A DNA stretch of 64,000 nucleotides, from contig JBBISH010000011.1 in NCBI GenBank assembly GCA_037441385.1, positions 1 through 64,000 of the forward strand. The letters are read 5' to 3'. Shown piece by piece: positions 11,755 through 57,341 of this stretch (position 1 is the stretch's first letter; every line of letters begins with the position of its first letter). A program made the translations under genes and the position numbers. The notes beneath the pieces were generated by a model. It did no database searches. It saw nothing but the letters and a program-made list of their open reading frames with translations, and was not told the DNA's origin. Origin of the DNA: Myxococcales bacterium. Its GTDB lineage: Bacteria; Myxococcota_A; UBA9042.

Positions 11755-11826
11755 AGCCACTCCGCTCCGGACCTGCAACATTCCAACGATCTTCAAGGCG
11801 CCGCGGGCAGATGGGCCGAGCTGACG

Positions 11827-13799: not shown

Positions 13800-14230
13800 A
13801 GTACCTCCGCAAGATCACGCGGTTGCGCTACGTTCAGCACCGCTTCGGCCACCAGCACACCGCCGTTCAGCACCGAGCAGGCAAAGCTGCCCAACTGCGC
13901 GTCGCCCCAGGTTCGCTGCGAACTGACGATCAACTCGGCACCAATGGGCACGTAGTCGCACGTCAACTGCAAATCGCGACAACCCAACAAGAACCCCAAG
14001 CGGACCGGCTCGCCGGCCTCGCGCCCCTGCAGCCCGGCAAACGCCGCCACCGCCTGAGCCATGTACTCCAGCGTCACCAGCGCCGGCAAACCGTGCTCTT
14101 CGACAAAGGGTCGCCCTGCGGCCACCGTTGCCCGCGCCACCAAACGGTCGGCGGCCGCGTCCACGATCTGGTCCAAGAGCACCATCGGCCCGGCATGGGG
14201 CACCAGCTCGGAAACGGGCGGGAAATTCAT
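13796..14230 (-). CDS. Hotdog-fold 3-hydroxyacyl-ACP dehydratase (ApeP-like)
   Basis: LVPHAGPMVLLD, EYMAQAVAA, LGFLLGCR; overlapping start/stop codons with both neighbours. Confidence 0.85.
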   Translation of the reverse strand: MNFPPVSELVPHAGPMVLLDQIVDAAADRLVARATVAAGRPFVEEHGLPALVTLEYMAQAVAAFAGLQGREAGEPVRLGFLLGCRDLQLTCDYVPIGAELIVSSQRTWGDAQLGSFACSVLNGGVLVAEAVLNVAQPRDLAEVL

Positions 14231-16184: not shown

Positions 16185-16238
16185 TGCGCGGCCGCGTATA
16201 GCACGCCCAGGCCACAAAACGCCAGCCGATCCACACCA

Positions 16239-32448: not shown

Positions 32449-35400
32449 CTAATCCTTGCGGTTTTCCGGCACCGGCTGGATGTCGCCGCACTGTCCGTCG
32501 CTCATGCACGGCTTCAGTTCAGGCCAAACCTTGCCGCCCGAGCCCAGGTACAGGCCGATGGCGTGCATGACCATCGCGCCGTGGTCAAAGAACGATTGCT
32601 TGTCGCAGGTAGCCGGGTCCTGCCCTGCCTTGCCTGCCGCCGACTTGCACCGGGCGCGCAGGGCGTCGACCTGCTCGCCAGGGTTCCAGAATCCGTGCTT
32701 GCCCTCTGGTTCCACGTACGGAAAGAAGGTGCCCGACTGGCCGCCGGCCTGGTCCGGACCGATCGCGTGCGTGTGCAGCGGCGGGCTTAGGCGCGGCACC
32801 GGCCAACCATCCTTGCCCTCGGGTGCCGGCGCGGCGAGCTGCACCTTTTGGCCTTGCGGCGGCAGACTGGACTGACCGGCCGCCACCGGCGTGGCGCTCT
32901 GCGACAGGTCTTCCACATCGAACAGGAGGCCATTGCCCGAGCCATCCAGAAAGCGCGGAATCTTGTCCACCGCTTCTAGCACGTAGGTATCGATGACGGT
33001 TTGGTTGACCGTTCGGCCGCCCCATTCGGCGATCTTCTTCTTCCAGTCCAACAGACCCGCCGCGCGGCCGATGGCCGCCCCGGTATTGACCGGCACGTTC
33101 ATGTCGCCAATGGTGTTCAACACGATCGCGTGAGTCCCCATGTCCGCGTCAAAGAAGTGCGAGGCCCACACCGCCGGGTCGGCCGGATCCAGGACCATCT
33201 GGGCAAAGCCAAAGAATTTTCGTAGTTCTGGCCGCGCTCGGTGCAAGCCCAGGCCTTCCGCTAACGGCGCCAGGGCCTCGCCCGCCTTGAATTGCAGCGG
33301 TGCCGAGCGGTAGTGGAAGGCAATGTCGTGGGTGAACTGGTCGACCACAAAGAGTTTCTTGGCGTCCAGCTTGACCGCGCAGGCCTTGTGCTTGAGCCGA
33401 TCGACTTGGCCCGACACGAACGCATCGCCCTTGTAGAACGTCAGCAGGTGCCGTTGCGGCGGCACGGTGATGTCCGAAGCGAGGCCGACGCGAAACGCGA
33501 GGCAGCGCGCGGTGCACACTTGCTTGTCCGCGACCGCGGCATCGGCCGTGCAGGTGGCCAAACAGCCCTTGTCCACAAACAGGCGGGCGCAGTCGTACTC
33601 GAAATTGCTGACATTGTCGGCGCGCACGCTGTCACCGGCGGCCAACTGGCCCCACAGCTCGGCGGGCACGCTCGCGACTTCTTTGTCGTACGTGTCGTTG
33701 AGCGACGGCACGATGGTGTGGATGCTCATCGTCGACGTCGCCGGGTTGGGCGTGCTCACGTACAGCGGCCCCATCAAGCGCAGCTGCACCGACTCGCGCA
33801 CACCGCCCTGGATCGACCGCACGCCCACGTCGATCAAACCGCCGCCGCCCGAAACCGGAACCACGGCGCTGATCTCGGTCTCTACGCCGCCCATCACGGC
33901 GCTCATGATGCCGCCCAGCGAGCCGCCCATCATGAAGATCGGCATCGTCGGCCCGCCCACGTCGACCACGCCGTCGCCGTCGGTGTCGCCGGCCAGGTCG
34001 TCCAACTTGCCGTTGCCGTTCAGATCCACCGGCCACACCGTCTTGCCGTCAAAGGCGCGCAAGATCCGCACCAACTGCATGTAGTCCACGGCGGTCTGGC
34101 GCACCACGTCGCGGGTGTGGAAGGTATAGGCAGTCCAGAAGTCGGCGCCCGAGTCGGCTAGACCGTCCAAGTCCTGATCCCAGTTGCGATTGCTGGTCAG
34201 CGCTTTGGCCAGGTTCAGCAGGCCAAAACCACCAAAGACGTTGGTCAGCAGCGCGCTGTCTTGCTTGCCCAGGGTGAAGCCGTGGCTCACGTTGTCGATG
34301 GCGATGGTGATAAAGCCCATGCGCGCCAAGTACGGGCCAAAGCTGAAGGCTTCGGTCTTGTTGCCCGTATAGCCGTGGCCCAGGATCACGATGCCGCGCG
34401 GCTTGCCGTCGGGCGTGGCCTCCTTGCGCGGGGTCATCGCCCAAAACGTCACGGTCTCGCTGCGGTCCTTGGCCTTCTTGCTCGCCACGTCGGGCGGCCA
34501 GCTCATGTCGTTGTAGCCCAGGTAGTGGCCGTCTTTGTCTTGGCGGTCGAACAGTTGCGGGCTTTGGTAGGTGCCAAAGAAGTGCACGCCCACGTACTTG
34601 AGCGCCTCGCCAAAACGCTTGGACTGTTCCGGCCCGCCCGTGCCGACCAAACCACCCGCGATGATGAGCTGGGCGACTTGCTGGAACGACTCGCCAGAGA
34701 GCGTGTACTTCGTCTCGAATTTTGGATGCTTGGGGTCGTTGTCGAACAACGGCAGCAGTTCGCCGAGTTGGGGCGGGTAGGCCTCGTGCAGGTGCTTTTG
34801 CGCGCCGGTGCCATACAAACCCTGGCGAACTGCACGCAGGTCGGCCTCAATGCTGCCCGTGGTGAACGACCAGGCAAAGGCGATGTCGCCCAGACCCAGG
34901 CCACCAAAGTCCTTGCCGTGACTAGCTAAAATCCCTTCCAAGGGCCGCAGCGCCTCGGTCTGCTGGAGGTGGTGGATGTATAGGCCCGGCGATCCCACGG
35001 GCTTGCCCTGCAGGTCCAGCACCCGCCGCGTCACCAGCACGGCGTAGGTGGTGCGCTCGCGCAGCGGAACCAAGGGCCGCAACAGAAGCGTATTGGTCTC
35101 GCGCTCGTAGAACGTCATCAGCGCGTCGGCGCGCTCGGCCAGGTTCATCTCGCCGGGCTTCTTGGTGACGCCGGGCAAGTAGTTGGGCTTGTCCAGTACA
35201 CCGTCCAGGTCGTCGTCTTCGCCCGGGTCCAGCGCGCCATTGCCATTGGCGTCCTCGTCGTGCTCTTCAAACGACAGTGTCAGGCTGTCGCCGCGCGCGT
35301 CGCCCCGCCAATAGCCGCCGATTTGCTCCAGTACTTGCGGGAAGTTGCCGTTGCCCACGTCCAGCTCGCGCGGCTGGCCAAAGGTAGGCGACCCCTCTGT

Positions 35401-35799
35401 GATATCGACCAGATAGACCGCGTCATCGGCAAAGGCGTAGTCGTCGCCGTGGTGCCGCAGCATGAGCGACTTGGGATCGATGGGCCCGTCGAACGGCACG
35501 CTGATCGGCGAATACGTGCCCCAACCGTCCAGCTGATCGACCAGCTGACGCGTCCGACTTTCCATGTTAGTGTCGGCCAGTTGCGAAGCATTGATGCGCC
35601 GCAGCGTGGGCGAACTGGCGTCGTAGCGCGTCGCCAGGTCGTTCGGCAGCGGAATTTCTGGCAGCGGCTTGGCGTCAAAATCGATCTTGACGTGGACGCT
35701 GGCGGCGCCGGCTTTGGCCAAGCCCTCGGGCTCGCTCTGACAAGCGCTCGCCGCCAGAACTAGCCACAAGTGCGCGAACCATCTTGAGTGCCTCTGCAT
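32449..35799 (-). CDS. Large lipoprotein with alpha/beta-hydrolase (lipase-like) domain
   Basis: LAASAC lipobox; IPLPND and LDGWGT N-terminal motifs; ILGHGYTG; nucleophile elbow GGSLGG; late KHGF. Confidence 0.7.
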   Translation of the reverse strand: MQRHSRWFAHLWLVLAASACQSEPEGLAKAGAASVHVKIDFDAKPLPEIPLPNDLATRYDASSPTLRRINASQLADTNMESRTRQLVDQLDGWGTYSPISVPFDGPIDPKSLMLRHHGDDYAFADDAVYLVDITEGSPTFGQPRELDVGNGNFPQVLEQIGGYWRGDARGDSLTLSFEEHDEDANGNGALDPGEDDDLDGVLDKPNYLPGVTKKPGEMNLAERADALMTFYERETNTLLLRPLVPLRERTTYAVLVTRRVLDLQGKPVGSPGLYIHHLQQTEALRPLEGILASHGKDFGGLGLGDIAFAWSFTTGSIEADLRAVRQGLYGTGAQKHLHEAYPPQLGELLPLFDNDPKHPKFETKYTLSGESFQQVAQLIIAGGLVGTGGPEQSKRFGEALKYVGVHFFGTYQSPQLFDRQDKDGHYLGYNDMSWPPDVASKKAKDRSETVTFWAMTPRKEATPDGKPRGIVILGHGYTGNKTEAFSFGPYLARMGFITIAIDNVSHGFTLGKQDSALLTNVFGGFGLLNLAKALTSNRNWDQDLDGLADSGADFWTAYTFHTRDVVRQTAVDYMQLVRILRAFDGKTVWPVDLNGNGKLDDLAGDTDGDGVVDVGGPTMPIFMMGGSLGGIMSAVMGGVETEISAVVPVSGGGGLIDVGVRSIQGGVRESVQLRLMGPLYVSTPNPATSTMSIHTIVPSLNDTYDKEVASVPAELWGQLAAGDSVRADNVSNFEYDCARLFVDKGCLATCTADAAVADKQVCTARCLAFRVGLASDITVPPQRHLLTFYKGDAFVSGQVDRLKHKACAVKLDAKKLFVVDQFTHDIAFHYRSAPLQFKAGEALAPLAEGLGLHRARPELRKFFGFAQMVLDPADPAVWASHFFDADMGTHAIVLNTIGDMNVPVNTGAAIGRAAGLLDWKKKIAEWGGRTVNQTVIDTYVLEAVDKIPRFLDGSGNGLLFDVEDLSQSATPVAAGQSSLPPQGQKVQLAAPAPEGKDGWPVPRLSPPLHTHAIGPDQAGGQSGTFFPYVEPEGKHGFWNPGEQVDALRARCKSAAGKAGQDPATCDKQSFFDHGAMVMHAIGLYLGSGGKVWPELKPCMSDGQCGDIQPVPENRKD

Positions 35800-35814: not shown

Positions 35815-37503
35815 CTACGGCGCCTCGCGGCCCAGCCAAGCCAGCGTAACTCGCCCAGCTGGAATCGGTTCGTTCAGGCCTGCCAGCGCGCCGCCGGGGA
35901 TCAGCACGCCCGCCTCAGCACAGAGGAGCAGGTGGGCCGGATAGTGCGGCACCGGCATGCGCCAACGCACGCCCGCGTCCAACTCGGCGCCCAGCAGCGA
36001 GCCCGTGGCAGCGTTGCCCAAGAAGTTGCGAGGAGAACCGCCACCTTCGCTGACCGTCCAGCGCGGGTCCGCGAGCGGCACCGACGTCCACGCCAGCAAA
36101 GCGCCGCCGTAGACCTCGCCGCGCTCCAAGAAGGTGTGGCCTACTTTGGGGAACACGACCCAGCTATTGGTCACCGCGCCGCCGGTCGCCAATCGATCCA
36201 GGTCCTCGGGCGGCTGGCCGACCAAGTTGGGGTCCGAGGCCGAGAGCCTCGCCCGTCCGGTCTGCCACGCAAGGACCCGCGGAAACAGCACGATGCCCAG
36301 CTGCGCGTTTGGGTCGGCCTTGAACGCCGTCACCTTGCCGTCGCCCAAGTTGGCATCGCCCGAGAGCCAAGCCAGGTCCAGCTGCGTGCGCAACCCAGGA
36401 GTCAGCTCGGCCGACGCCCGCAGCAGCGCAGCGCCTTGCAGCACGTCGTGCTTGGGGAAGTCGGGGCTGGGCGCCAACGTGGTCGTGCCCGCGATCAAAG
36501 CGGCCTCGCCCTGCAGGCGAATCGCGTGCAACGGCGTGGGCAGGCGCAAATCGAAGGCGCCGTCGACCAGACTGACGTCCAGGCCGCGCCCAGAGGCCGC
36601 GGTCTGACTCCTCCCGGCATAGTACAGGCCAAGCCACTCGTCCGACGCCACGTACCAGCGCACCGAGCCAACGACTTGATTGGCCGTGTCGCCGTCCAGC
36701 AGGACATCGTCGGCAAACACGCGGTCGACCGCGAGCGACACCGCCAGGCCGCGCAAGACCGAAGACGTGTTGCGGAAAGGGGTCAAGACCAGCGCGCCGC
36801 GGACCACGCGGTCGCCGACCCGCGGCACATAGAACCACTGCTTGTCCATGCCCTGGACTCGGCCATCGCGTGCGACCAAGCCATTGCCCCACGACGAGCC
36901 CATCAGGCCGCCGCGCACCTCCGCAATTTGATTCCAGTTCGCCCCGATCCAAGCTTCGGTTGGCTCTAGCTTGCCCTCGCGACTGGCCGGCAAGCGATCC
37001 CCGGGCAGCGGGGTCAGACCGCCCCAACCGCCGCTCAGCAGTTCGCCGCCCAGCGCGCCGCGCACGACCAAGCGGCCCAGCCAGCGGCCAGTCTGACCGC
37101 CCACGCCAAAGTGCAGGCGACCATCCAAGTCCGCATTCGCCGGCGATTTCGTGCCTGTGCGGTCGACCATGAACTGGCCCATTTGGGTAGCGGTGGCCAG
37201 GATCGCAACGTCGGGGTGCCAGCTGGGCCGATTGGCAGCTTCGCGCATGGCCAGGGCCATGACGCCGGGCGGCGTGGCGATCCGCTCCATAGTAGGCGTG
37301 GCCGATTCTGCTGGAGGCACAGCGGGTTTGCTGGCAGGCCCCTCGGCTGGCGTGGCGGCAGCGGGCGTATCGACCGCATCGGCCCAGGCTGGCCCCGTTC
37401 CGGCCAGCGCCAGCACCGCCCAACCCAACAAGGTCAAGCGCGGCAGGAGCACGCCCGGCCGGGCCCAACTCCCAGCGCCCCAGGGCGTTCGCGTGCGAGA
37501 CAT
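35815..37503 (-). CDS. Putative outer-membrane beta-barrel (alginate-export-like)
   Basis: Signal peptide ending PAWA; amphipathic strands; SGDAN...LGAELDAGVRW pattern. Confidence 0.6.
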   Translation of the reverse strand: MSRTRTPWGAGSWARPGVLLPRLTLLGWAVLALAGTGPAWADAVDTPAAATPAEGPASKPAVPPAESATPTMERIATPPGVMALAMREAANRPSWHPDVAILATATQMGQFMVDRTGTKSPANADLDGRLHFGVGGQTGRWLGRLVVRGALGGELLSGGWGGLTPLPGDRLPASREGKLEPTEAWIGANWNQIAEVRGGLMGSSWGNGLVARDGRVQGMDKQWFYVPRVGDRVVRGALVLTPFRNTSSVLRGLAVSLAVDRVFADDVLLDGDTANQVVGSVRWYVASDEWLGLYYAGRSQTAASGRGLDVSLVDGAFDLRLPTPLHAIRLQGEAALIAGTTTLAPSPDFPKHDVLQGAALLRASAELTPGLRTQLDLAWLSGDANLGDGKVTAFKADPNAQLGIVLFPRVLAWQTGRARLSASDPNLVGQPPEDLDRLATGGAVTNSWVVFPKVGHTFLERGEVYGGALLAWTSVPLADPRWTVSEGGGSPRNFLGNAATGSLLGAELDAGVRWRMPVPHYPAHLLLCAEAGVLIPGGALAGLNEPIPAGRVTLAWLGREAP

Positions 37504-37555
37504 GGCGTCCTTTGGCGGCTCCAGGGGCCGCGGCGACAACGGGTGCCGTGGCGGC

Positions 37556-37585
37556 AACGTACGCAGATCGGCGCCAGAGCGTCAA
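37556..37585 (-). promoter_or_regulatory. Putative sigma70 promoter for the barrel/hydrolase pair
   Basis: Minus-strand TTGACG-18bp-TACGTT, ~50 bp upstream of ATG 37503. Confidence 0.4.
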
Positions 37586-37710
37586 GGGGCCGGCAGCGGT
37601 CGCAGGTCCAGAGACTTGTGCTGCGTAGTCTGGCGCGGGCATCGCAAAACGGCCGCCCCGCCCACCTGCCGCAGCAGGCCGACGAGGGCCGCAAACCCTT
37701 GTGCGTGCGA

Positions 37711-40701
37711 CTACTTCACGGTCGCCATCGCCGCCTTGGTGGCGTTGATGGTCTCGCTGAAGAAGGTCGGGTTGTGTAGGCCGCCGCTCTTGTCGTTGTT
37801 CAGCAGTTGCATGTTCCAGATGCCCTTGAACACGGTGGTGCCCGCGCCGATGACCGCGGTGTTCTTGCCGGCCACGGGCGTCTGCAGCGCCGTCCACGAC
37901 ACGCCGAACTGGGTCACGCTGGTGGTGGTGTTGTCCGTCCAGGTGATCGAGATGGCCTTGGGCATGGTGAACCACAGGAAGAACGAGGTGCCCACGTACT
38001 TGGCCTCGATGCTGGTCGGCACGTCGGTCAGCTCCACGTTGTAGGTGGTGCTGGAGCTGGACGAATACAGGCCGTTGCCGTTGTTCGCCCGCACGAGCAC
38101 CTTGCCGTTGGCGGCAATCGCCTGGCTGGTCAGCACCTTGGCGGCGGCGCCGATGCTCTGGCCCATCTCGGTCATCTGCATGGCGATCACGCCCTTGAGC
38201 GCCTTGCCGTCCACGTTGGCGGCGTGGCACGAAGCGCAGACTTTCTCGTCTGGCTTGAAGCTGTGGTTGCCGGTCTCGTTGGCCGCGGCTTGCGCCTCGG
38301 TCGGGATTTTGACGTGGCAGGCCGCGCAAGTATCGGTGACCGCCAAGTGCTTGCTGGGCGTGTAGCGCGGCATGAAGTAGGCGTTGAAGCCGTACAGCAC
38401 GTCAGTCTGCGCCGGGGCGTGCGGGCCCGAGGTCGAGGTCGTCGCGGCGACAAAGTCGGTGTGCTCGCCGTTGCGGGTGTTGTGGCAGGCCATGCAGGTC
38501 AGGCCGGTGCCGGCGCCGGTGATGCCGGTCATGCCGTTGGGCAGCGCGGCCACGCTGTCGTACAGACGGACTTGCGCCGGGTGATCCGCGGCGTGCGGGT
38601 CGTGGCAGGTCTGGCAGGTCTGCGGCTCCACGGTCGAGCGCTGCAGGCCGGCCGCGCGCAGGTAGGCTTCGTCGGCGGGCGAGCCGTCGGGCTTGACGAT
38701 CAGGCCAGCGTTGCCTTTGTCGAGCTGATCGGCGTACAGGACGAAGCCTTGCGCGGCGTGGCAGCGGCCACAGTGGGCGGCGTTGGCGCCACTGGCTTCA
38801 AACGTGCCGCGGTCGGCCAGGGCCGGGTTGGCGTGACCGCTGGTCTGCCACTGCGCGGGCTTGTAGTGATGCGGGCCTTCCTGGTGGCACTGCGCGCAGA
38901 CCGCCGTGCTCATCGACACGCGCGCAAAGTGCAGGTCGTTGACCACGGCCGCGTTCTTGCCCATGCCCGACGACGAGTGCCCTTGCGAATTGTTGGGGCC
39001 GTGGCAGTTCTCGCACTGCACGCCCGCGAGCTTGCCCAGGTCCGGGTGATCTTTCTGCAGCGCATCCCAGGTGCCGGCGGCGGGCTTGAAGACCCAGCCG
39101 TTGTTCTTCTGCACGTCGTCAAAGCCGCCGTTGTCCACAAACGGCGAGTAGCCTACTGTGTGGCATTCGATGCAGCCCTGGCCAAAGAACGCGCCGCCCT
39201 TGACGCCGTTGAACTTGTCGATGCTGCCCAGCAGGTGGTTGGTCTTGGCCCACGCGCCAAATGGATCCGGGGCCACGGTGTTGTTGTGGCACGCCTTGCA
39301 GACGTCCTGGCCGTTGTACATGCCGGCCCAGCTGCCCGCGTAGATGGTCAGCGTCATCTTGGCGACCGTCTCGGTGAGCACGTAAGCGCCCTTGGCGTCA
39401 GGGGTAAAGTGCGGGAACTGCGTGGTAGCGTCGACCAGCTTGGCGGTCGAGCCGCTGGCGCCACTGCTGTCCAACGTCCAGTTCCAGCTGGTCACGGTGG
39501 CGTCGCCCTGCAGGTACACGGGCAGGCCCAAGGTCACGTTGCGCAGTCCGGCGCCGGGCGCGGCCGACATGACCGTCACGTTGGCCGTGCTGCTGTGGCC
39601 CTGCGGGTCCTTGACGGTCAGGCTGAAGGTGTAGTGACCAGCGTCGTCCGGCGAGATGCCCACCACGCCAAAGCGGATCGGCGTGGCAAAGGTCTTCGAG
39701 TTCGGCAGCGACAACGTCTTGAAGGTCAGCGTGTTGCTGGTGGGGTTGGTCAGGGTCACGGGCAGGCCGCCGGTCTGGGTCCACTGATAGCTCAGCTTGG
39801 CCACGTCGCTGTCGGCGTCGGTCACCGTCGCCTTCAGAGCCACGTTGGCGTCGTAGCCCGCCAGCAGATCGCTCGCCACCACGATGGTCGGTGCGCCGCC
39901 ACTCTTGCTGTCGGCCGTCAGGGCCGCGCCCACGTTGGTCGTGTTCAGCGCCACAACGCCCACGTTGTTGATCTGGGCGGTGGCGTAGCCGGCCAGGCTC
40001 ACCGTCAGCTGGTAGGCACCGATCGGCACGCCGGTCAGCGTGAAGGTGCCATCAGCGCCCGACTTGACCTGCAGACTCAACGGGTTGCTGGTCACCAGCG
40101 CGCCAACCAGGGCCGAGCCGTCGGCCGCCGCCGTCACCTTGCCGCTGATGGTGCCCTTGGCCGAGGCTGGGTCGCCGCTGTCGCCCTTGGGGCCTTGGGC
40201 GCCGTCTTTGCCGTTCACGCCGTCTTTGCCGTCTTGCACGGTCGCGGTCGGCGAGCCTGGGCAGTTGATGGTCTTGGTGCCGGCGCCGTCGTCGGCCACG
40301 GTGCAGGGCGCGCCGTCTTTGCCGTTCTTGCCGTCGTATACGGTGACTGTGCTGCCGTCAGGGCAGGTGATGGTCTTGCTGCCGTTGGCGTTGGCGGCCA
40401 CCGTGCAGTTCTTGCCGTCCAAACCGGCCTTGCCGGCGGGCAACGTCACGGTGGTGCCGTCTTCGCAGGCGATGGTGGCGCTGCCGTCGGTATTCGCCTT
40501 GACCGCGCACGACTTGCCGTTGGCGCCGGGGGCACCGTTGGCCCCGTTCGTCCCGTTCTGCCCGGCCGCGCCCGTCGCGCCGATCGGCCCGGTTGCTTCA
40601 CAGCCGGCCAACGAAAGCAGGGCTGCGAACGCCCCGACGAGCACCCTGCCAAAGACAGGGGTGGCCATGCCCGTTTGGTTCCACTTGATTGCGTTCATCA
40701 C
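37711..40701 (-). CDS. Multiheme c-type cytochrome lipoprotein (9 CxxCH) with collagen-like stalk and beta-sandwich domains
   Basis: LSLAGC lipobox; GXY runs; carboxypeptidase-regulatory-like domain (GTISGKVT...GAYQLTVSLAGY); PKD/Ig-like domain (SYQWTQTGG); CKACH, CIECH, CENCH, CAQCH, CGRCH, CQTCH, CMACH, CAACH, CASCH; C-terminal DKSGGLHNP. Confidence 0.9.
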   Translation of the reverse strand: MMNAIKWNQTGMATPVFGRVLVGAFAALLSLAGCEATGPIGATGAAGQNGTNGANGAPGANGKSCAVKANTDGSATIACEDGTTVTLPAGKAGLDGKNCTVAANANGSKTITCPDGSTVTVYDGKNGKDGAPCTVADDGAGTKTINCPGSPTATVQDGKDGVNGKDGAQGPKGDSGDPASAKGTISGKVTAAADGSALVGALVTSNPLSLQVKSGADGTFTLTGVPIGAYQLTVSLAGYATAQINNVGVVALNTTNVGAALTADSKSGGAPTIVVASDLLAGYDANVALKATVTDADSDVAKLSYQWTQTGGLPVTLTNPTSNTLTFKTLSLPNSKTFATPIRFGVVGISPDDAGHYTFSLTVKDPQGHSSTANVTVMSAAPGAGLRNVTLGLPVYLQGDATVTSWNWTLDSSGASGSTAKLVDATTQFPHFTPDAKGAYVLTETVAKMTLTIYAGSWAGMYNGQDVCKACHNNTVAPDPFGAWAKTNHLLGSIDKFNGVKGGAFFGQGCIECHTVGYSPFVDNGGFDDVQKNNGWVFKPAAGTWDALQKDHPDLGKLAGVQCENCHGPNNSQGHSSSGMGKNAAVVNDLHFARVSMSTAVCAQCHQEGPHHYKPAQWQTSGHANPALADRGTFEASGANAAHCGRCHAAQGFVLYADQLDKGNAGLIVKPDGSPADEAYLRAAGLQRSTVEPQTCQTCHDPHAADHPAQVRLYDSVAALPNGMTGITGAGTGLTCMACHNTRNGEHTDFVAATTSTSGPHAPAQTDVLYGFNAYFMPRYTPSKHLAVTDTCAACHVKIPTEAQAAANETGNHSFKPDEKVCASCHAANVDGKALKGVIAMQMTEMGQSIGAAAKVLTSQAIAANGKVLVRANNGNGLYSSSSSTTYNVELTDVPTSIEAKYVGTSFFLWFTMPKAISITWTDNTTTSVTQFGVSWTALQTPVAGKNTAVIGAGTTVFKGIWNMQLLNNDKSGGLHNPTFFSETINATKAAMATVK

Positions 40702-40821
40702 CCTACCTCCATGGACTCTGGCCCTCTTGGCCCCTGCTGCCGCGCTCGCGGCCCCTTTCAGCGCTCGACTCGCCTGGACTGCGGAACGGTCCTCACCCTT
40801 GTGGGCCCGTCCGTACCTCGG

Positions 40822-41985
40822 CTACGTGTGGCACGGCGTGCACGCCGGTGCCGTCTTGGGATCTTGCTTGCTCGACCAGCCCGGCGGGTGCGGGTTGCCG
40901 CCCGGCTCGCCGACTTTGTGGCACTTGACGCAGTTGCTGGCGGCGCCGCGGTCGTGGCAGGCCGCACAGGCCGTGATGTCTTGGCGCGCGGCCCGACCGT
41001 GGTTGTCCACACCGCCGCGGTCCATCCACCCGGCTGGGTGCGGGCTGGGGCCGCCGCCGGCTACGGGCTGCGAAAGGCCCATGCGTTCGTGGCACTTGAC
41101 GCATGTCTGCGGCGCGTGGCAAGTCTGGCAACCCTTGCTGTCCAGCTTGGCTTCCATCGAGTGGCGGCTCATGTAGTCGCCGCGGTGGTGGAACGACGCG
41201 TCAACCCGGTCGGCATGCAGCAAGTCTGGGCGGATCGCGTTGTTCTTGCTGTGGCACTCGGCGCAGCTAGTGTCTTGGTGGCAGTGGCCGCAGACCTTGC
41301 TCTGGCCCTTGGCGACGACGCCGTGGCGGCGCAACCAGTCCGCGCCGTGGTCGAAGTCGCGCACCGGCTTGTCCTGCATGGATTTCAGACCCTTGTGGCA
41401 GGTGTAGCAGTTCTCGGTGCGGAAATCGCGGCTGTGGCAGCTGGTGCAGGCGACCAGCATGTTGGGGCGCATGTCTTCAGACACCTTACCGTGCTTGCGG
41501 ATGTCGCCGTGGCAGCGCACGCAGGTGTCTTTGTCGCCGGCCTTTTGCACGCGGTCCAGGTGGTTCTTGTGGCTGAAGTTGACGTCAAAGGTGCGGCGCG
41601 TGTCGACGAACGTGGTGGGCATGCTGGGGTTGGCGTGGCACTTGTCGCAGCCGCCCTCGGCTTTGTCGTGGCAGTCCATGCACTTGGCTTCGGTGGGGAT
41701 CTCGCGCTTCTTGCTAAGGTCTTCCGAGGCGGCAATGCCGTCGTGGCAGTCGGCGCAGGCCAGGCCCTGGCAGGCGCCCGTGTCGCCCTTGGCGTTGGGC
41801 AGGCAGTCGGCGTCTTCGGCGGCGGCGACGTGCCAATTGTGCGAGAACTTGACGTTGTCGCGCACGTTGCGCTCCGGTGCGCTGCCGCCCCACGAGCCGA
41901 GCAGCCAGGCGCAGGCAGGTAGCGTTGCCGCCATCGCCAGTACCAGCGCGAGCCGGAGCAGTGCGGATCCTTGCAAGGATTTCAT
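40822..41985 (-). CDS. Multiheme cytochrome c3-like lipoprotein (13 CxxCH)
   Basis: TLPAC lipobox; FSH..H motifs; 13 CxxCH counted in 387 aa. Confidence 0.92.
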   Translation of the reverse strand: MKSLQGSALLRLALVLAMAATLPACAWLLGSWGGSAPERNVRDNVKFSHNWHVAAAEDADCLPNAKGDTGACQGLACADCHDGIAASEDLSKKREIPTEAKCMDCHDKAEGGCDKCHANPSMPTTFVDTRRTFDVNFSHKNHLDRVQKAGDKDTCVRCHGDIRKHGKVSEDMRPNMLVACTSCHSRDFRTENCYTCHKGLKSMQDKPVRDFDHGADWLRRHGVVAKGQSKVCGHCHQDTSCAECHSKNNAIRPDLLHADRVDASFHHRGDYMSRHSMEAKLDSKGCQTCHAPQTCVKCHERMGLSQPVAGGGPSPHPAGWMDRGGVDNHGRAARQDITACAACHDRGAASNCVKCHKVGEPGGNPHPPGWSSKQDPKTAPACTPCHT

Positions 41986-43487
41986 GGATTTCCTCCGGCG
42001 GGCTTGGCGTCGTCGGCTTTCTCGGGCGCTTTGTCGGGGGCCTTCTCGGCGGGCTTGTTCGGGGCTTTCTCGGCCGGCTTGCCGTCGCCCTCGTCGTCCT
42101 TCTTCTCTTCGGCCTTCTTCTCGTCGGCCTTTTTCTCTGGCGGGGCTGCGACTTCGGTAGCACCCGCGCCCGAGACCAGGGCAGCCGGAATCGGGCGGGG
42201 AGCCATCAACATGCCCTCGTTGACGGTCAAGGTCAGCAGCCCCAGGGCCTGCGCGTCAAAGTACGGGTTGCGCCAAATCTGGGCGTCCACGCCAGCGTCT
42301 AGCCCGCGAATCACGGCATAGCGGGCCGAGGCGCCGCCGCGGACCGAGAACGTCTCGCCGTGCACCGCCCGCATGAAGGCGTAGCAGTCGATGTCAGCCG
42401 CCACGGTCAGGCGGTCCATGGGCTTGCCGCTGCCAAAGATGCGCACTTGGTCGTAGCCGTTGTCGCCATTGAACAAGCGCGCGTACTGCACGCCGGCCCG
42501 GTAGCGCCCCGCGGGGTCGATCTTGACGCGGCCTTCCACGAAGGCGCGGTAACCGTCTGCCACGCCATCGTTTTTCACAAAGCGGTCGTAGCCGCCCGCC
42601 ACGGTCAGCGCGCCGGGGGTGATCAAGTCAAAGCTGCCGCCGACCATGCCGTCGGTCCGCTGCAAGAACGCCTGGAAGATCGACGTCTTGCTCATCCACG
42701 CCAAGGGGTCGCGCAACTCGGCCTTGGTGTGCACGATCAAGAAGTCCTTGACCTTGTAGTTCAAGTCCAACCGCGCCTGCTGCAAGCGGTTCTCTAGCAG
42801 GTCCTGCGCGTAGAAGGCCACCAGCGTCAGCGGGTCCAACATGCGCAGCGACCCGTCGATCGACAGCGACCGGCGGTTGGTGTAGTCCACCTTGGCGTTC
42901 GCACCGGGCACGTCGTCGATGGCCTGCAGGCCCACGCCGACATGGCCGAGTTCCCAGGGCGTCCACGCGACGCGAGCGCCGTAAGTGGGCGCCTTGAAGA
43001 CATTGTCAAAGTTCTCGTACACACCCGTGCCAAAGTAACCGTCGACGCGGACGGCCTTGGGCAGGTGCATGATCAGCGAGGCGCCGTCCATGTACTGGTA
43101 CTGGGCGCCGCCCGTGAATACGGCGATACGGCCAATCTGGAAGCGGATTTCGTCCTTCTTGGCCGCCCAGCCCAAGTTGCCAAGCATCAGATCCGCGCCG
43201 TGCCCCGCAGGGCCGCTCGCGAACTGCTGCTGCAAGTAGCCGTAGGCCGAAGCAAAGATGCCCGTGCCGCCCGCGTTGGTGGCGTCAAAGGACAGCAGCG
43301 CCAAGCCTGGGACGCTCGTATCGGTCGCGGGGGTCGTACCGGGACGCAACTGCCCGGTGAACAAGCCGATCGCCTTCAAGCTGGCGTGGATGTCGCCCGT
43401 TTCGGCAGCTTGCGCGGCCAGCGCGGTCCCGCCAAGGGCCAGCGCCAGTGCCGCAGTCAAAAACCGCTTGGGGAATCTGCAGTTCAT
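41982..43487 (-). CDS. Putative outer-membrane porin of a porin-cytochrome complex
   Basis: Signal peptide (ALAAQA); long run of amphipathic beta-strands; no heme motif; ATGA overlaps with both flanking cytochrome genes; K/E/D/P-rich tail. Confidence 0.7.
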   Translation of the reverse strand: MNCRFPKRFLTAALALALGGTALAAQAAETGDIHASLKAIGLFTGQLRPGTTPATDTSVPGLALLSFDATNAGGTGIFASAYGYLQQQFASGPAGHGADLMLGNLGWAAKKDEIRFQIGRIAVFTGGAQYQYMDGASLIMHLPKAVRVDGYFGTGVYENFDNVFKAPTYGARVAWTPWELGHVGVGLQAIDDVPGANAKVDYTNRRSLSIDGSLRMLDPLTLVAFYAQDLLENRLQQARLDLNYKVKDFLIVHTKAELRDPLAWMSKTSIFQAFLQRTDGMVGGSFDLITPGALTVAGGYDRFVKNDGVADGYRAFVEGRVKIDPAGRYRAGVQYARLFNGDNGYDQVRIFGSGKPMDRLTVAADIDCYAFMRAVHGETFSVRGGASARYAVIRGLDAGVDAQIWRNPYFDAQALGLLTLTVNEGMLMAPRPIPAALVSGAGATEVAAPPEKKADEKKAEEKKDDEGDGKPAEKAPNKPAEKAPDKAPEKADDAKPAGGNP

Positions 43488-46192
43488 GGGTCCACCCATC
43501 CGTTGATGTGGTAGCCGTCCTTGAGGTTCAAGGTGCCGTCCGCGTTGACCGTCTTGGAGTGGCAGGCGGCGCAGGCCTTGGTGGTGCTGCTGCCCACGTA
43601 GGGGTGACCCGCCAGAACCGACGGCGGCAGGCCGTGGCAGTCGCCGCAAGTCACGCTGCCTGCTGCGGTCCACGTCACGGTGGGCTTGGCGGCACTGTCT
43701 TGGGTAGCGCCGTGGCAGTAGGTCTGCGAGCAGGTTTGCTTGACCGGGTCGTAGGTCGGCTTGGAGCCAAAGTACTTGGCCAAACCGCCGGGGAACACGA
43801 TGGTGCTGAGGCCGGCAAAGTGCCCGGGCTCGTCCACCGTCTTGGGCAGCTTGTGGCACTCTTCGCAGGCCATGCCGCCGCCGCTGAACTGCTTGCCGTT
43901 CAAGTGGGCCGCGTGGGCGCCGACCATGGGCGAGGTGGGGACGCTATTGCCGGCGGTGTCCGGGGCCGGCGCGCCCTTGCTCTGCTCGGTCCCGTGGCAG
44001 GCGTAGCAGTTGCTGGGGTAGGCCGTGTCCACTTTGCCATTGTAGTGGAGGCCGCCGGCCAAGATGTTCTTGGTCGAATCCACACTGGTCGCGTGGCACT
44101 TGCTGCAATCCTTGACGGTTTGCGGGTGGGCGTCGCCGCTGGCGATGGTCTTGGGGGGCTCTTGGTGGCACTGGTTGCAGGTGCCGGCGCCGATGGCGAA
44201 CTCGACCTTGCCGTCGTAGTGCGATCCGCCGCTGACCACATGCATGTCCGCGTCGATACTGGCGGCGTGGCAGGCGCTGCACTGGCCGGCCTGCGGGTGC
44301 GGCTTGCCAGCGGCGGTGGTCTTGGGCGGTAGCGCGTGGCAACCCGTGCACGAGGTGGGCGCGGTGGCGACGACGACCTCGACCGTGCCATCCATGTGCT
44401 TGCCACCACTGATGATCTCTTTGCTGCCCTTGACCGAGGCCGAGTGGCAGTCGCCGCAGACGGTCGAGGTCGGGTGCGCCTTGCCGGTGGCCGCGATGAC
44501 TTTGGGCGGCGCGGCGTGGCAGCCGCTGCAGCTGGTGGGGTTGGCGGCGAGCTGCACTTCGACCTTGCCGTCCATGTGGCTGCCGCCGCTGATGATCTTC
44601 TTGTCCGCGTCCACAGTGCCGGCGTGGCAGTCGTTGCACACCGCCTGCTGCGGGTGGGCCTTGCCGGTGGCGGCGATGACCTTGGGCGGCGCGGCGTGGC
44701 AGCCTTCGCACGACGTGGGCACGGGCGCCAGCTGCACTTCGACCTTGCCGTTCATGTGGCTGCCGCCAGCGACGAGCGTGTTGTCGGCCGCGACCGTGCT
44801 GGCATGGCAGTCGTTGCATTGGCTCTGCTGCGGGTGCGGTTTGCCGGTGGCGGCGATGGTGACCGGCGGCGCCAGGTGGCATCCGTCGCAGGCGGTGGGC
44901 TTGGCCGCGATTTGCACTTGGACCTTGCCGTCCATGTGGGTGCCGCCCTCTACGATGGCCTTATCCGCGGTGACCGAGCTGGCGTGGCAGTCGTTGCATT
45001 GGTTTTGCTGCGGGTGTGGCTTGCCCGTGGCCGCGATCACGACCGGCGGCGCCAGATGACAGCCGTCGCACGAGGTCGGCTTGGCCGCCAACTTGACGTC
45101 GACCTTGTCGTTCATGTGCGTGCCGCCAGCGATCAGCGCGTGCGAGGCGTCCACGGTCGACGCGTGGCAGTCATTGCACTGGCTCTTTTGGGGGTGCGGC
45201 TTCTTGTCCTTGCCGGCGACCAGCGGCGGGGCACCGTGGCAGCCGTTGCAGCTGTTGCCGGCGGGCAGCAGGGCTACTTCCACCTTGCCGTTCATGTGCG
45301 TGCCGCCCGCGATCAGGTCGCGCGTGCCCTTGACGGTGGTGGCGTGGCAGTCGCCACAGTTGGCCGCGACCGCTGGGTGCTTGTCGGTGAACGGCGGCGC
45401 GCCGTGGCAACTGGCGCAGTTCACGTTGTTGGCCAGCACCACGTCCACCTTGCCGTTGATGTGCATGGCGCGGTCGGTGACGACCATCTTGGCGCCCATG
45501 GTGGCGGCGTGGCAGGTTTCGCAGTTGGTGTCTTTGGGGTGCGGGGCGGGCGGCGGCGCACCGTGGCACGAGTCGCAGCCGCGCTGGCTGCCGTCCACTT
45601 TGGTCCACAGCGGCTTGCTGTCCTTGCCGGGCGCCTTCAGCGTCGCGCCGTGGCAGTAGCTGTTGCTGCAGGTGTTGCTGGCCGCGTCGTAGGTCGGAGT
45701 CGCGCCACCCGCCAAGGCCAAGCCGCCAAAAGTCACGGTGGCTTTCTCGTCCGGGGCGTCCAAGTGGCCGGTTTGATACTTGCTCGTCGGCACGATATGG
45801 CAGGTCTGGCAGGGAATTGGTGTGTGAACCGGCCCGTAGCCCAGGTGCTGCTGGTGGGCACCCACGCCGGCGTCGGTCGTCGCGGTCTGCCCTTTGAGCC
45901 CGCGCGGTGGGGCGGCGTTGTTGGTGGTGCCGTGGCAGGCGGCGCAATCGGCGGTCTTCAGCACTTCGTCTGCAGTCGGCGCGGGCGTCTTGGCGACCGG
46001 GGTCACGGCGACCCGCGCGGTGTCGCAACCGCTGGCCCACACCAGGGCCGAGGCCAAAAGCGCCAAGCCGATTGGCAAGCGCCTGGCGGCGGTCGGGTCG
46101 GCGCCGCGGCGACGCGGACTCTCGATGTGCAGACGGTGGGGATGCGGACTGTCGGGATGCGGACTGTCTGCGCACAGGTTGACCTTGCCCAT
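43484..46192 (-). CDS. CxxxxCH/CxxCH-domain multiheme cytochrome lipoprotein (24 CxxCH + 2 CX4CH) with tandem di-heme repeats
   Basis: WASGC lipobox; CSNSYCH and CSQTYCH plus 24 CxxCH counted; 180-nt periodic repeats. Confidence 0.92.
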   Translation of the reverse strand: MGKVNLCADSPHPDSPHPHRLHIESPRRRGADPTAARRLPIGLALLASALVWASGCDTARVAVTPVAKTPAPTADEVLKTADCAACHGTTNNAAPPRGLKGQTATTDAGVGAHQQHLGYGPVHTPIPCQTCHIVPTSKYQTGHLDAPDEKATVTFGGLALAGGATPTYDAASNTCSNSYCHGATLKAPGKDSKPLWTKVDGSQRGCDSCHGAPPPAPHPKDTNCETCHAATMGAKMVVTDRAMHINGKVDVVLANNVNCASCHGAPPFTDKHPAVAANCGDCHATTVKGTRDLIAGGTHMNGKVEVALLPAGNSCNGCHGAPPLVAGKDKKPHPQKSQCNDCHASTVDASHALIAGGTHMNDKVDVKLAAKPTSCDGCHLAPPVVIAATGKPHPQQNQCNDCHASSVTADKAIVEGGTHMDGKVQVQIAAKPTACDGCHLAPPVTIAATGKPHPQQSQCNDCHASTVAADNTLVAGGSHMNGKVEVQLAPVPTSCEGCHAAPPKVIAATGKAHPQQAVCNDCHAGTVDADKKIISGGSHMDGKVEVQLAANPTSCSGCHAAPPKVIAATGKAHPTSTVCGDCHSASVKGSKEIISGGKHMDGTVEVVVATAPTSCTGCHALPPKTTAAGKPHPQAGQCSACHAASIDADMHVVSGGSHYDGKVEFAIGAGTCNQCHQEPPKTIASGDAHPQTVKDCSKCHATSVDSTKNILAGGLHYNGKVDTAYPSNCYACHGTEQSKGAPAPDTAGNSVPTSPMVGAHAAHLNGKQFSGGGMACEECHKLPKTVDEPGHFAGLSTIVFPGGLAKYFGSKPTYDPVKQTCSQTYCHGATQDSAAKPTVTWTAAGSVTCGDCHGLPPSVLAGHPYVGSSTTKACAACHSKTVNADGTLNLKDGYHINGWVDP
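44009..45577 (-). repeat. Nine tandem ~174-180 bp coding repeats (di-heme module)
   Basis: Equivalent positions recur exactly 180 nt apart at 44341, 44521, 44701, 44881, 45061 and 45241. Confidence 0.9.
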
Positions 46193-46250
46193 GTTGGCCT
46201 CGACGAATACGGCGACGTGTTCGAGCTTCGCTGCCGCTCGAACCGTAGCG

Positions 46251-46268
46251 TAGCAAGCGACATACCAG
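46251..46268 (-). promoter_or_regulatory. Putative sigma54 promoter of the cytochrome operon
   Basis: Minus-strand CTGGTATGTCGCTTGCTA matches YTGGCACG-N4-TTGCW with exact GG-N10-GC spacing, ~60 bp upstream of ATG 46192. Confidence 0.7.
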
Positions 46269-47012
46269 TTGGGCAGGACGGCAAGGCCCGTTCTGCAAGG
46301 GTTTCGTCACAGCTTCGCAAGCCAACCATGGGCGACAATTCCATGACCATTCACGGCCCTGTTGCCTTGGGACCGTTGTCGCCAACCCTCGCAGTCGCCA
46401 AAGTCGCTCGGCGTACCAGCGCGGCCTACTGCCGCGGATCGCGGCCGTCGCTTGGCCTGTCTGCGCTCCCGTCGGATGGCGTCAGCTGTTGGGTAGACCA
46501 TCGCGGGCGCGAGACTGCGAACGCCACAGACGAAATTGCCGCCTGTGGCCCAGTCTGTCTGCGATTTTGAGCGGCGGCAGTCGTGCAGAGCGCGGCGAGT
46601 GCAGAGCGCGGCCAGTTGGTACCAAGTTTGTCACCGGCTCCTTCCACGACGATTTCACTTTTGATATGGAGTGTCCCAATCGGAGCCATGCGCTCCAACG
46701 CACCCAGGCCCAGGCGCAAACCGTGCCGATGGACCGGGCACTTCTAAACCTGCGCGTGCTGCCTCGGCACCTCAAGGGCCGCCCAAGCCGGCCCATCCGG
46801 GGCGACGCGTACGGCGCACCGCAAGACCAAGTCCGCCGGCCTCCGCCACGAGCGGGCCGGCGTGCAGGGGGAGGTTGCCGGCTGGATCGAGGGGTCAGCC
46901 GGCACCTCCAACCCCTGTGCCGCGCCGATTTCGACGGCCCGGATGCGCGGAGAAAGTCTAAACTGATCCGCTCCCTAGAGCGTCCTACCCTCCGGCCCAA
47001 ATCGGCGCAGGT

Positions 47013-47060
47013 TACAGATCGGTGTACAGATCGGTGTACGGATCGGTGTACGGATCGGTG
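47013..47060. repeat. Four tandem 12-bp repeats TACRGATCGGTG
   Basis: TACAGATCGGTG x2 followed by TACGGATCGGTG x2, intergenic. Confidence 0.9.
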
Positions 47061-55289: not shown

Positions 55290-55349
55290 GCATGCCGGTC
55301 GTGCGTCGACCGCTCCCAACTTCGCGGCTTGGCCGCTCCAGGTGAATGC

Positions 55350-57341
55350 ATGCGTTCTCTCTTCAATAATGCCGCTTTGCGGGCATTGGCGGTCCCGACC
55401 GCGCTGGCGGCCCTGAGCTGCGGGCCGATCGGCTGCGGCACGACTCCATCCAATGGCGGCGGAGGCACCACCGTGACCACCGACGCGGCGGGCGGCGACC
55501 TGGGCACCAAGACCGACACCGCCGCCGACACCGCCGCCGACACCGGCGCCGACACCGGCGCCGACTCCAGCGCAGTGGTCACCCCGGTGGTCAATCTGAT
55601 CGTCGACTCCAACCGCGATGGCATTGCGAAGCCGGGCGACAAGGACGACGAAGACTTCGAGACCGCGTTCGACGACAAGCACGGCGCGTCGTTCTTGCCC
55701 AATTTGGACGACGACAACAGCAACAAGAAAGAAGATTTCTACGACGAGGCCATCCCCGACGACAAGGCAGCCCAAGACCTGGCGCCGATCTTGGTCCAGG
55801 CCTGGAAAGACGTGCCAGACGGCGCCACGGCCAAGCTGACCGTGGAACCGGCCGACAAGGCGCGCATTTGGGCCAAGCTCAGCGACGGCACCTGGGGCTG
55901 GCTGGCCGGCGCCCAAGGCGTTTGCGACGGCGTGGGCGAGTGCAACGGCGTGGGCGAAGTGCAGTTCCCGCTCGACCTGCTCAAGAGCGGCGCCGAGTTG
56001 GGCTTGGAAGGTCGGCAGTTCCGCATGTCGGCGAGCGACAAGGACACCGACCCGCTGTTCTGGGACGGCCAGGTGACGGTGTCGCTGACGGTCTACGACA
56101 AGGCGGGCATGCCCTACAACAACGCACCGGGCACGGACAAGGGCACGGACAAGGTGCTGCTGCGCGTCGCGCCGTGGCTGCAAAACGGCAACTTGTCCGA
56201 GTTCGACAAGTGGACGTCGCTCAGCTGGGGCAATCAAGCCGACGCGGCGACGTTCAACGCCGACCTGGACAAGGCCCAGCAAGCCGTAGGCAGCAAGGTA
56301 ACCTACGATAAGTACACCTATTACAGCGATCAGTGGACCCAAGACTGGTACCAGACGGGCACCGTGCAGATCCCCGGCCCCAATGGCACGGTCCACGGCA
56401 TGCGCGTCTACAACGCGCGCCCCTACAGCAACGGCCCCAAGACGCTGCCGATCACCATCTTGAAGTCCAAGTTCATGGGCCCGGACCGCATTGCCATCAA
56501 GATCTACAAGAAAGACAACTTTGGCACGTCGTTCGACTCGCACGGCAACCACGACCTGCTCCCCGCCTACACCAACGGCAAGGACAGCTACCCGCTGAGT
56601 CGCATCCTGACCGGTTCGGGCGCCCTGCCCGAGACGATGGACTTCTACGCCGCCCAGCGCGTGCAGGGGCCACCGGTCGTGGTCGACACCACTTGGTTGG
56701 CGGTGGGCCACTGCGACGAGATCCTGAGCTACGCGCCCGCCAAGACCGCACGCGGCTGGAAGCTGCTGTATGCCAACGACAAGATGGCGATCGACATGTT
56801 CACGCAGCTGCAGAAGGACGGCAACGGCAAGATCGAGGTGTTCTCGGGCCGCGACGTCGAGCGCAAGGGCAAGGCCGTGACCACGCAGCCGACGATTGAC
56901 TCGGTGATGGCCGATGTGGATCTGCTCACCTCGTCTCAGGGCGCCCACGTCAAGACGGATGCGGCCGTGGAGTTGGTCAAGGGTGTGGTCGGTCTGACCG
57001 AGGACGAACTGGTGCCGATTCCGTTCCTGACCGAGGACTGGAGCAAGAACGAGATGATCGCCTGGCAGCCCGGCACCGTGAACTCGATGATTGTTTACGA
57101 TCACATCATGGCGCCGAACACCTATGGCCCGATCGTGAACGGCGCCGATGTGTTCGCCAAGGACCTGCAAGACCGCCTGGGCACCGACAAGCTGGGCTTG
57201 GGCAGCGATGGCAAGGGCATGAAGGTTCACCTGATCGACGACTGGTACGGCTACCACTTGCTCATGGGCGAAGTGCACTGCGGGACCAACCCCGAGATGC
57301 CGCCGTCGCCCAAACTGACCTGGTGGAAGGTCGTTCACTAA
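55350..57341 (+). CDS. Protein-arginine deiminase (animal PADI-type), lipoprotein
   Basis: VLLRVAPW, DQWTQD, FDSHGN, WLAVGHCDEILSY, GEVHCGTN and terminal WWK parallel PADI motifs; ALSC/IGC lipobox and (DTxA)n linker. Confidence 0.88.
   Translation: MRSLFNNAALRALAVPTALAALSCGPIGCGTTPSNGGGGTTVTTDAAGGDLGTKTDTAADTAADTGADTGADSSAVVTPVVNLIVDSNRDGIAKPGDKDDEDFETAFDDKHGASFLPNLDDDNSNKKEDFYDEAIPDDKAAQDLAPILVQAWKDVPDGATAKLTVEPADKARIWAKLSDGTWGWLAGAQGVCDGVGECNGVGEVQFPLDLLKSGAELGLEGRQFRMSASDKDTDPLFWDGQVTVSLTVYDKAGMPYNNAPGTDKGTDKVLLRVAPWLQNGNLSEFDKWTSLSWGNQADAATFNADLDKAQQAVGSKVTYDKYTYYSDQWTQDWYQTGTVQIPGPNGTVHGMRVYNARPYSNGPKTLPITILKSKFMGPDRIAIKIYKKDNFGTSFDSHGNHDLLPAYTNGKDSYPLSRILTGSGALPETMDFYAAQRVQGPPVVVDTTWLAVGHCDEILSYAPAKTARGWKLLYANDKMAIDMFTQLQKDGNGKIEVFSGRDVERKGKAVTTQPTIDSVMADVDLLTSSQGAHVKTDAAVELVKGVVGLTEDELVPIPFLTEDWSKNEMIAWQPGTVNSMIVYDHIMAPNTYGPIVNGADVFAKDLQDRLGTDKLGLGSDGKGMKVHLIDDWYGYHLLMGEVHCGTNPEMPPSPKLTWWKVVH

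Follow-up and report, generated by a model that had tools for sequence, protein, structure and literature searches.

We analyzed a 64,000-nucleotide stretch of DNA (the window) that forms the start of contig C11 (JBBISH010000011.1) in the Myxococcales bacterium assembly GCA_037441385.1, a 6.63-Mb genome with 66.9% GC and 90.9% completeness, and describe here an operon of four genes, A, B, C, and D, all on the minus strand between positions 37711 and 46268. Gene A (43484..46192) encodes a lipoprotein-type cytochrome of 902 amino acids (aa) with 26 heme motifs (24 CxxCH and 2 CxxxxCH), gene B (41982..43487) a 501-aa outer-membrane protein with no heme motif, gene C (40822..41985) a 387-aa lipoprotein-type cytochrome with 13 CxxCH motifs, and gene D (37711..40701) a 996-aa lipoprotein-type protein with nine. 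ATGA overlaps join A to B and B to C, and C and D are spaced by 120 nucleotides (nt). Each cytochrome has a cysteine that follows a hydrophobic stretch (WASG-C56 in A, TLPA-C25 in C, and SLAG-C34 in D), and these lipobox cysteines are retained in the family-level orthologues inspected, as judged by eye and by pattern. An earlier note, made from the DNA letters only, had described four co-oriented genes with ~48 heme motifs, ATGA coupling of the first three, and lipoboxes on all three cytochromes; our recount (26 + 0 + 13 + 9 = 48) and inspection agree with it on each point.

The myxobacterium-like host that had been proposed is likewise supported, in that relatives of the locus are Myxococcota. 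Among eleven related loci in named records, nine bear a Myxococcales or Myxococcota title, one is labeled Deltaproteobacteria, and another is labeled Enterobacteriaceae; the porin of the last (L005, CAYHHL010000029.1) nests among Myxococcota rows of the tree, and its label is probably wrong. DNA of the locus occurs in two subsurface metagenome runs from one study, one of which is possibly the source of the assembly. Contigs of run X1 span 37000-46958 in three pieces with zero mismatches, an agreement that is not independent, as X1 may be that source.

Residues 28 to 430 of B were modeled with AlphaFold2 from 138 sequences as a plug-less beta-barrel (predicted local distance difference test [pLDDT] score of 93 and predicted template modeling score of 0.84), followed by a low-complexity charged tail. 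Counted on the model, the barrel has 22 long amphipathic strands with alternating hydrophobic faces. The expectation that the middle protein would fold as a beta-barrel was thus borne out, both by the model and by its matches to outer-membrane barrels. The closest structures are TonB-type, usher, and porin barrels of 22 to 24 strands (best Z, 18.7). Such transport barrels would suit an improbable reading of the locus as an envelope redox store or soluble-substrate reductase, in which the hemes serve as a capacitor, D acts in the periplasm as a reductase of nitrite, hydroxylamine, or sulfur oxyanions, and B is a pore for substrates or for export. However, they match B at only 8 to 12% identity and therefore speak for shape only. 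The 50 best structural matches did not include MtrB, to which B may still be distantly related. B had no match in Pfam or NCBIfam searches, its profile had none among Protein Data Bank (PDB) sequences, and PF11854 (MtrB_PioB) matched nothing anywhere in the genome. The B profile recovered 313 representatives at an E value of ≤0.001 and, counting this genome in both cases, matched 29 of 41 near relatives and 144 of 401 Myxococcota genomes (E ≤ 1e-8). One Atlas cluster of look-alikes is mostly Thermodesulfobacteriota. We dropped the idea that B is the genome's sole conduit, as other barrel-like genes adjoin multiheme genes on contigs C20 and C87. The C87 cluster (G000:C87:12173-18369, minus strand) encodes cytochromes with 23, 13, and 19 CxxCH motifs and then a beta-rich 610-codon frame without a Pfam match, and is perhaps a further conduit.

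Gene C is dense in hemes, with 28 residues per heme, and is built of two parts. Hemes 1 to 6 occupy two N-terminal triheme c7 domains (PpcA/GSU1996-like), for which the best PDB match is the 318-residue c7 polymer 3OV0 (E = 3e-33); hemes 7 to 13 (40825..41292, minus strand) lie in His-Trp-His repeats, for which solved structures gave no strong match. Single-sequence searches of the PDB with A, C, and the D head returned no match. The C profile matched 184 of 401 Myxococcota genomes at E ≤ 1e-35, and no homologue of C was found in plasmid records. In family f23, two short C homologues, which match only profile positions 162/175-355, hold hemes 7 to 13 alone beside a weak B homologue; from these short forms we infer a barrel-threading role for the last seven hemes of C and a periplasmic place for its c7 domains.

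For synteny, we fetched 80 porin loci from Myxococcota, a subset chosen for top scores, family spread, and long open frames. A C-type gene stands beside B in 76 of the 80, and all 11 loci in named records read B and then C. Of the four loci without C, two are cut off by the end of the contig, and in the other two the neighbor is a different gene with seven hemes. All 83 B-C pairs, some of which are from the same record, are on the same strand, and the first heme of C falls 96 to 416 nt past the end of the porin in each pair except L044. There, B and C form one 866-codon frame (L044:7806-10403; G015:C24, minus strand), a natural fusion of a B porin with a 13-heme C, in which C follows the barrel C-terminus, codon bias is steady, and there is no second signal peptide; the same genome also holds a normal D-A-B-C operon (L041). 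As the C-terminus of a barrel normally lies on the periplasmic side, the fusion fits a periplasmic location of the c7 domains of C. That C, not D, adjoins B across the phylum, and was once fused to it, counts against a redox store or soluble-substrate reductase built around D.

FastTree phylogenies of B and C (80 pairs, with three truncated duplicates left out) shared 45 of 77 splits, with a Mantel r of 0.88. The porin tree has two well-supported clades, of 22 and 58 rows, and this locus belongs to the larger. In the 22-row clade, C lacks a lipobox, and no other gene with at least five hemes lies in the fetched flanks. Of the 58 C proteins in the other clade, 53 match the lipobox pattern, two fall just outside the pattern window, one is the fusion, and two lack a lipobox; most C homologues in this clade have 341 to 374 aa. 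Genes like A, detected by pattern, are near 42 of 54 loci of the lipobox clade versus 0 of 22 of the other, and BLAST adds some that the pattern missed. The synteny survey that the earlier note had called for thus yields a conserved unit, which is B plus C, with A and D varying around it as exchangeable modules, as judged from gene content. In distant loci (L051-L057, L070-L076, L132, and L138), a 23- to 27-heme cytochrome follows C, and a small NapC-like tetraheme gene usually adjoins the porin on the opposite strand; together with B and C, these genes could form a complete path from quinol to the surface.

Gene A matches TIGR01904 (98.7 bits against a cut-off of 27) and PF09698, and the DmsE/MtrA decaheme model TIGR03508, which has a cut-off of 192, gives it a score of 32.5. 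Both A and D exceed the cut-off of the generic heme-domain model PF22113. Two five-heme caps with CxxxxCH and CxxCH motifs flank a repeat core (44009..45418, minus strand) of eight tandem units of 56 to 60 aa, each with two CxxCH motifs and two spare histidines. The protein as a whole has 29 spare histidines for its 26 motifs and 33 residues per heme, close to the ~33 cited for MtrA as typical of wires (PMC5566968, cited throughout, like PMC4245776 and PMC6148476, from excerpts of the source). Although A shares its family with Geobacter TIGR01904/PF09698 cytochromes, it has CxxxxCH in the two caps only, and its middle is an array of two-heme units that varies in copy number. Geobacter members of this CxxxxCH/CxxCH domain family are extracellular. 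Thirteen full-length family orthologues of A have 14, 16, 18, 26, 28, or 36 motifs, with fixed caps and a repeat period of 51 to 69 aa, such that length changes in two-heme steps. The longest forms (36 hemes; four loci counted) are from genus g9 of family f1, where D is absent in six of six genomes, and the shortest forms in that family (14 to 18 hemes) have an adjacent D; a trade-off between the length of A and the presence of D is possible, with the limit that few lineages are involved and these are not independent. The modules that make up these caps recur elsewhere in the genome, in a 3,290-codon frame (G000:C10:70753-80622; L103:5754-15623, plus strand) with 50 CxxCH and 33 CX3-4CH motifs (~83 possible hemes), which sets such CxxxxCH/CxxCH modules behind a lipobox and an acidic linker and has smaller paralogues on C13 and C168.

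The length of A bears on which way it faces. Twenty-six hemes at an estimated ~1 nm each would come near the width of the periplasm, 170 to 200 Å (PMC11492766 and PMC7096707, excerpts), A is translationally coupled to B, and the periplasmic cytochromes of PCC3 systems have a median of 21 hemes (PMC5566968). The same B-C conduit could therefore be fed by an inward-facing A that spans the periplasm as a lipid-anchored wire; the sole outer part would then be D, or else MtrC-family proteins from other loci. We consider this arrangement unlikely, if somewhat less so than a redox store. The c7 domains of C are already in place for this task, no A-like genes lie near the loci of the 22-row clade, and a spread of 14 to 36 hemes within one family suits a gap of fixed width poorly, which favors A as a surface stalk.

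Gene D was described in the earlier note as a stalked nine-heme cytochrome, and this description is upheld. The N-terminal 450 aa, with collagen-like repeats, a CarboxypepD_reg domain, and PKD domains, form the stalk, and a nonaheme head (37714..39348, minus strand) follows. The head was modeled with a pLDDT of 94, and in Foldseek its only matches below 0.001 were OcwA of Thermincola potens (6I5B; E = 5e-6) and OmhA of Carboxydothermus ferrireducens (6QVM; E = 2e-5). VIA-align gave a Z of 15.1 with OcwA (root mean square deviation of 3.9 Å over 333 residues, 23% identity) and 15.0 with OmhA, and the D profile matched the OcwA sequence at E = 1e-7 in collinear pieces that include the His-His segment. 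Like these two proteins, the head has nine hemes, the same fold with a core of c554 plus NrfA type, and a bundle of helices at the C-terminus. A His-His pair in the D segment GPHHYK aligns with that of OcwA, though its identification with H281/H282 depends on a deduced offset in numbering, and the model is heme-free; OcwA has two five-coordinate hemes with distal non-bonding histidines, H282 and H381 (PMC9250108). OcwA and OmhA, however, are cell-wall or S-layer proteins of Gram-positive thermophiles and work without a porin, whereas D has a diderm host, a collagen/CarboxypepD/PKD stalk, and a beta-rich insertion in the helical part. The placement of D within the NrfA/c554 superfamily would also suit the soluble-substrate reductase raised above, yet all nine of its motifs are CxxCH and none is CxxCK.

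Homologues of D numbered 239 at E ≤ 1e-10 among 7,999 candidates; the cultured Minicystis rosea has one, A7982_00743, at 43% identity. Within the family, D turned up in 14 of the 37 genomes, each of them with a B hit; of the 23 without D, nine have B, 11 have no B hit, and three were not searched for B. The place of D in relatives varies (behind C, ahead of A, or on a separate contig), which leads us to regard it as an accessory module. Elsewhere in this genome, which has no MtrB hit, two OmcA/MtrC-family decahemes (G000:C49:17338-20835 and G000:C141:2-2866) score above the TIGR03507 cut-off and resemble D in their N-terminal repeats.

A sigma54-type element, CTGGTAT-GTCGC-TTGCT, lies 60 nt ahead of the start of A (46268-46252, minus strand; 46252..46268). 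The spacing that had been noted for it is correct (GG-N10-GC), but the site is not significant alone, because its score of 5/7 was reached in 12 of 200 shuffles; 2,503 such sites occur genome-wide. The element is degenerate at this locus and near-consensus in relatives. It occupies the same place as a 7/7 site in the orthologous position of relative L001, and 10 of 13 operon heads of relatives have a 6/7 or 7/7 site, the exceptions being L006, L011, and L041. The site stands ahead of A, or ahead of D where D is the first gene, and rpoN is present in the genome. By this comparison of sequences, the operon head carries a conserved predicted sigma54 site.

The logic of the operon would resemble that of Shewanella MtrCAB (6R2Q), in which a cytochrome through a barrel passes electrons to a surface cytochrome, but its parts differ. 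The MtrB barrel has 26 strands (PMC12133095, an excerpt), versus 22 in B, which lacks PF11854; C has 13 hemes and no TIGR03508 hit; and A, C, and D have no TIGR03507 hit. In hidden Markov model searches against the Mtr families, no component of the operon reached the cut-off of TIGR03508, TIGR03507, or PF11854. The earlier note's view that the components do not look like decaheme MtrA or MtrC thus stands, but not in the stronger sense of proteins unrelated to any known, given the TIGR01904 match of A, the c7 domains of C, and the OcwA/OmhA fold of D.

Porin-cytochrome pairs of Pcc group IV are described in the same phylum from Anaeromyxobacter (Adeh_3391/Adeh_3392), with a porin of 18 to 22 predicted strands and a 12- to 14-heme cytochrome (PMC4245776). 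The group IV cytochrome has 338 to 344 aa, and with the Kuenenia and Ignavibacterium pairs, which are not placed in a group, the ranges are 338 to 400 aa and 12 to 14 hemes; Adeh_3391 has 24% identity to GSU2644 and GSU2726 (Table S1 of that source). Compared by description only, the 22 strands of B and 13 hemes of C fall within the group IV ranges, and C has 387 aa. Atlas look-alikes of C in clusters of 345 to 355 aa (Myxococcota) and 402 to 404 aa (Ignavibacteriota) resemble the Pcc cytochromes in size and taxon, which is a lead only. As excerpted, the systems of Anaeromyxobacter, Kuenenia, and Ignavibacterium are two-gene pairs with a periplasmic cytochrome and no outer cytochrome, whereas here C has a lipobox and is joined by A and D; the 22-row sister clade does fit the two-gene layout. 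The distinct architecture suggested earlier would apply to the addition of A and D to the pair, and not to the arrangement of a porin with a 12- to 14-heme cytochrome, which genomics had already revealed in Anaeromyxobacter and to which B and C may be related.

The Geobacter ExtABCD, ExtEFG, and OmaB-OmbB-OmcB systems also combine a periplasmic multiheme cytochrome, a barrel, and one or more redox lipoproteins (PMC6148476). No part of an Ext cluster is exchanged more often from one species to another than the outer lipoprotein, around a core that is conserved, which matches the exchangeable A and D of this operon. As described in the excerpt, ExtA has 12 hemes, ExtB has 18 predicted strands, ExtC and ExtD are small, and OmaB has eight hemes; unlike the operon here, these descriptions include neither a repeat wire nor a stalked OcwA-like partner. 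Pfam and NCBIfam searches gave no hit naming ExtAB or OmaB-OmbB for the operon proteins. PCC3 systems similarly pair a porin with very heme-rich, repeat-built, low-complexity cytochromes, but they are mostly from Proteobacteria and, as excerpted, have a ~21-heme periplasmic cytochrome and a conserved five-helix inner-membrane protein, the gene for which is absent from this operon (PMC5566968). DFE_0448-0465 of Desulfovibrio ferrophilus was set aside as a comparator, since the word porin is absent from the paper. We found no account in the literature of this operon or of a porin-linked OcwA homologue, within a search that covered subscription papers thinly; a lake survey that ranks Myxococcota first for unexplained or novel multiheme clusters (10.1101/2022.03.26.485925, an excerpt) may list these proteins in its novel-cluster table.

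The genome encodes 60 open frames with two or more CxxCH motifs, and the check for heme maturation genes proposed earlier turned up a CcsA/ResB-type system (PF01578 matched four times, and a ResB/CcsB pair is present). With four subunits of the NrfD family, NapC-like proteins, NapA, QrcA/B-like genes, the two MtrC-family decahemes noted above, and two genes of the heme-copper oxidase family, the gene content suggests that the host is a facultative respirer. The oxidases and NapA would also serve a conduit that runs inward, drawing electrons from Fe(II), partner cells, or reduced humics and feeding them into the respiration of oxygen or nitrate, and two-gene porin-cytochrome pairs are typical of Fe(II) oxidizers (PMC4245776). 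We give inward flow as little weight as a redox store: D resembles the terminal reductases OcwA and OmhA of Fe(III) reducers, and the locus sits in the clade with outer modules, not in the two-gene clade.

Taken together, the operon has the general features of a conduit: an outer-membrane barrel gene, an adjacent and co-inherited multiheme cytochrome, and redox lipoproteins A and D in the same cluster. We put the probability at roughly 70% that it encodes a porin-cytochrome conduit across the outer membrane that serves extracellular electron transfer and has exchangeable outer modules, a reading in which binding, sidedness, direction, and activity are deduced from sequences and models. Extracellular electron transfer had been proposed in the earlier note, and the barrel model, the Myxococcota relatives, and the heme maturation genes are consistent with it, with surface exposure and activity still presumptive. 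In the proposed mechanism, C would be lipid-anchored on the periplasmic side. Electrons from quinol-oxidizing complexes encoded elsewhere would reach its two c7 domains by way of periplasmic carriers and move on through its last seven hemes, threaded through B. A and D, as surface lipoproteins, would receive them from C; A would be a wire made of one extendable chain, and D a terminal reductase kept at a distance from the surface. When oxygen is scarce, flow would likely be outward, with minerals of Fe(III) or Mn(IV), humic matter, or other cells as acceptors, and the operon may be under sigma54 control.

Several points weigh against this outward conduit. NrfA aligns with the D head at a Z of 14.7, within 1 of the value for OcwA and so tied with OcwA, which in vitro is itself active as a reductase of nitrite and of hydroxylamine (PMC7096707). 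D stands behind a 120-nt gap and is moved or missing in relatives. The congruence of the B and C trees is weak evidence of binding, because kin share history and co-inherited neighbors would be expected to agree, and the 22-row clade, with no other multiheme gene in its fetched flanks, indicates that the core can occur without outer modules. A positively charged barrel lumen was looked for and is not a consistent feature: the medians are 18 R/K and 18 D/E, and 44% of the 138 rows have a net positive charge, so that charge offers no argument for an inserted cytochrome. C carries a lipobox, whereas MtrA, OmaB, and ExtA, as described in excerpts, have none (PMC6148476 and PMC4245776). Finally, A and D may face the periplasm, since lipoprotein sorting is not predictable here.

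Upstream of the operon is glpD, and downstream are a porin-like gene and a lipase-like gene. The former (35815-37557, minus strand) encodes an unannotated, porin-like-looking protein, E, with two paralogues in the genome; we rejected kinship with B (hhalign probability of 0.1%), and E follows D in L001 and L002 only. The latter (32449-35799, minus strand) encodes an 1,116-aa lipoprotein with weak likeness to VolA/Pla-1 lipases. The intergenic region upstream of A holds a 60-bp element (46919-46978) with 36 BLAST matches across the genome and four tandem copies of a 12-bp unit (~47010-47058). Elsewhere in the window are a protein-arginine deiminase family gene (55329-57341, plus strand), an acyltransferase with two ketosynthase genes (10798-16217, minus strand), and a fusion of POR-domain, ATP-grasp, and CoA-ligase parts that adjoins a 2-oxoacid:ferredoxin oxidoreductase (3403-8079, minus strand).

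The locus is real, and it probably encodes a member of a porin-cytochrome conduit family that has no curated model and is widespread in Myxococcota. As B has no Pfam or NCBIfam match, screens based on those families would not name the conduit, even though the B profile matches genomes across the phylum. More tentatively, and with somewhat less than even confidence, we suggest that B plus C is an unrecognized family apart from Mtr, Omb/Oma, Ext, and Anaeromyxobacter Pcc (the last by description), present in about one-third of the sampled Myxococcota genomes, with a seven-heme core in a 22-strand barrel, to which one clade has added a lipid anchor, a wire that grows in two-heme steps (14 to 36 hemes), and a stalked OcwA-type reductase. 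The most unusual parts are the variable-length wire A and the porin-linked OcwA-fold head of D. The natural length series of A, with its fixed caps, makes conduction versus wire length testable within one family. The OcwA-type fold has so far been solved only from Gram-positive cell walls, and a porin-linked head of this fold, if confirmed, would join Gram-positive and Gram-negative routes of extracellular respiration. The locus would supply the multiheme cytochromes of Myxococcota with a concrete conduit and a marker gene, and if B plus C is indeed a separate family, extracellular electron transfer would be widespread among myxobacteria, a group studied for the most part as predators with an aerobic life.

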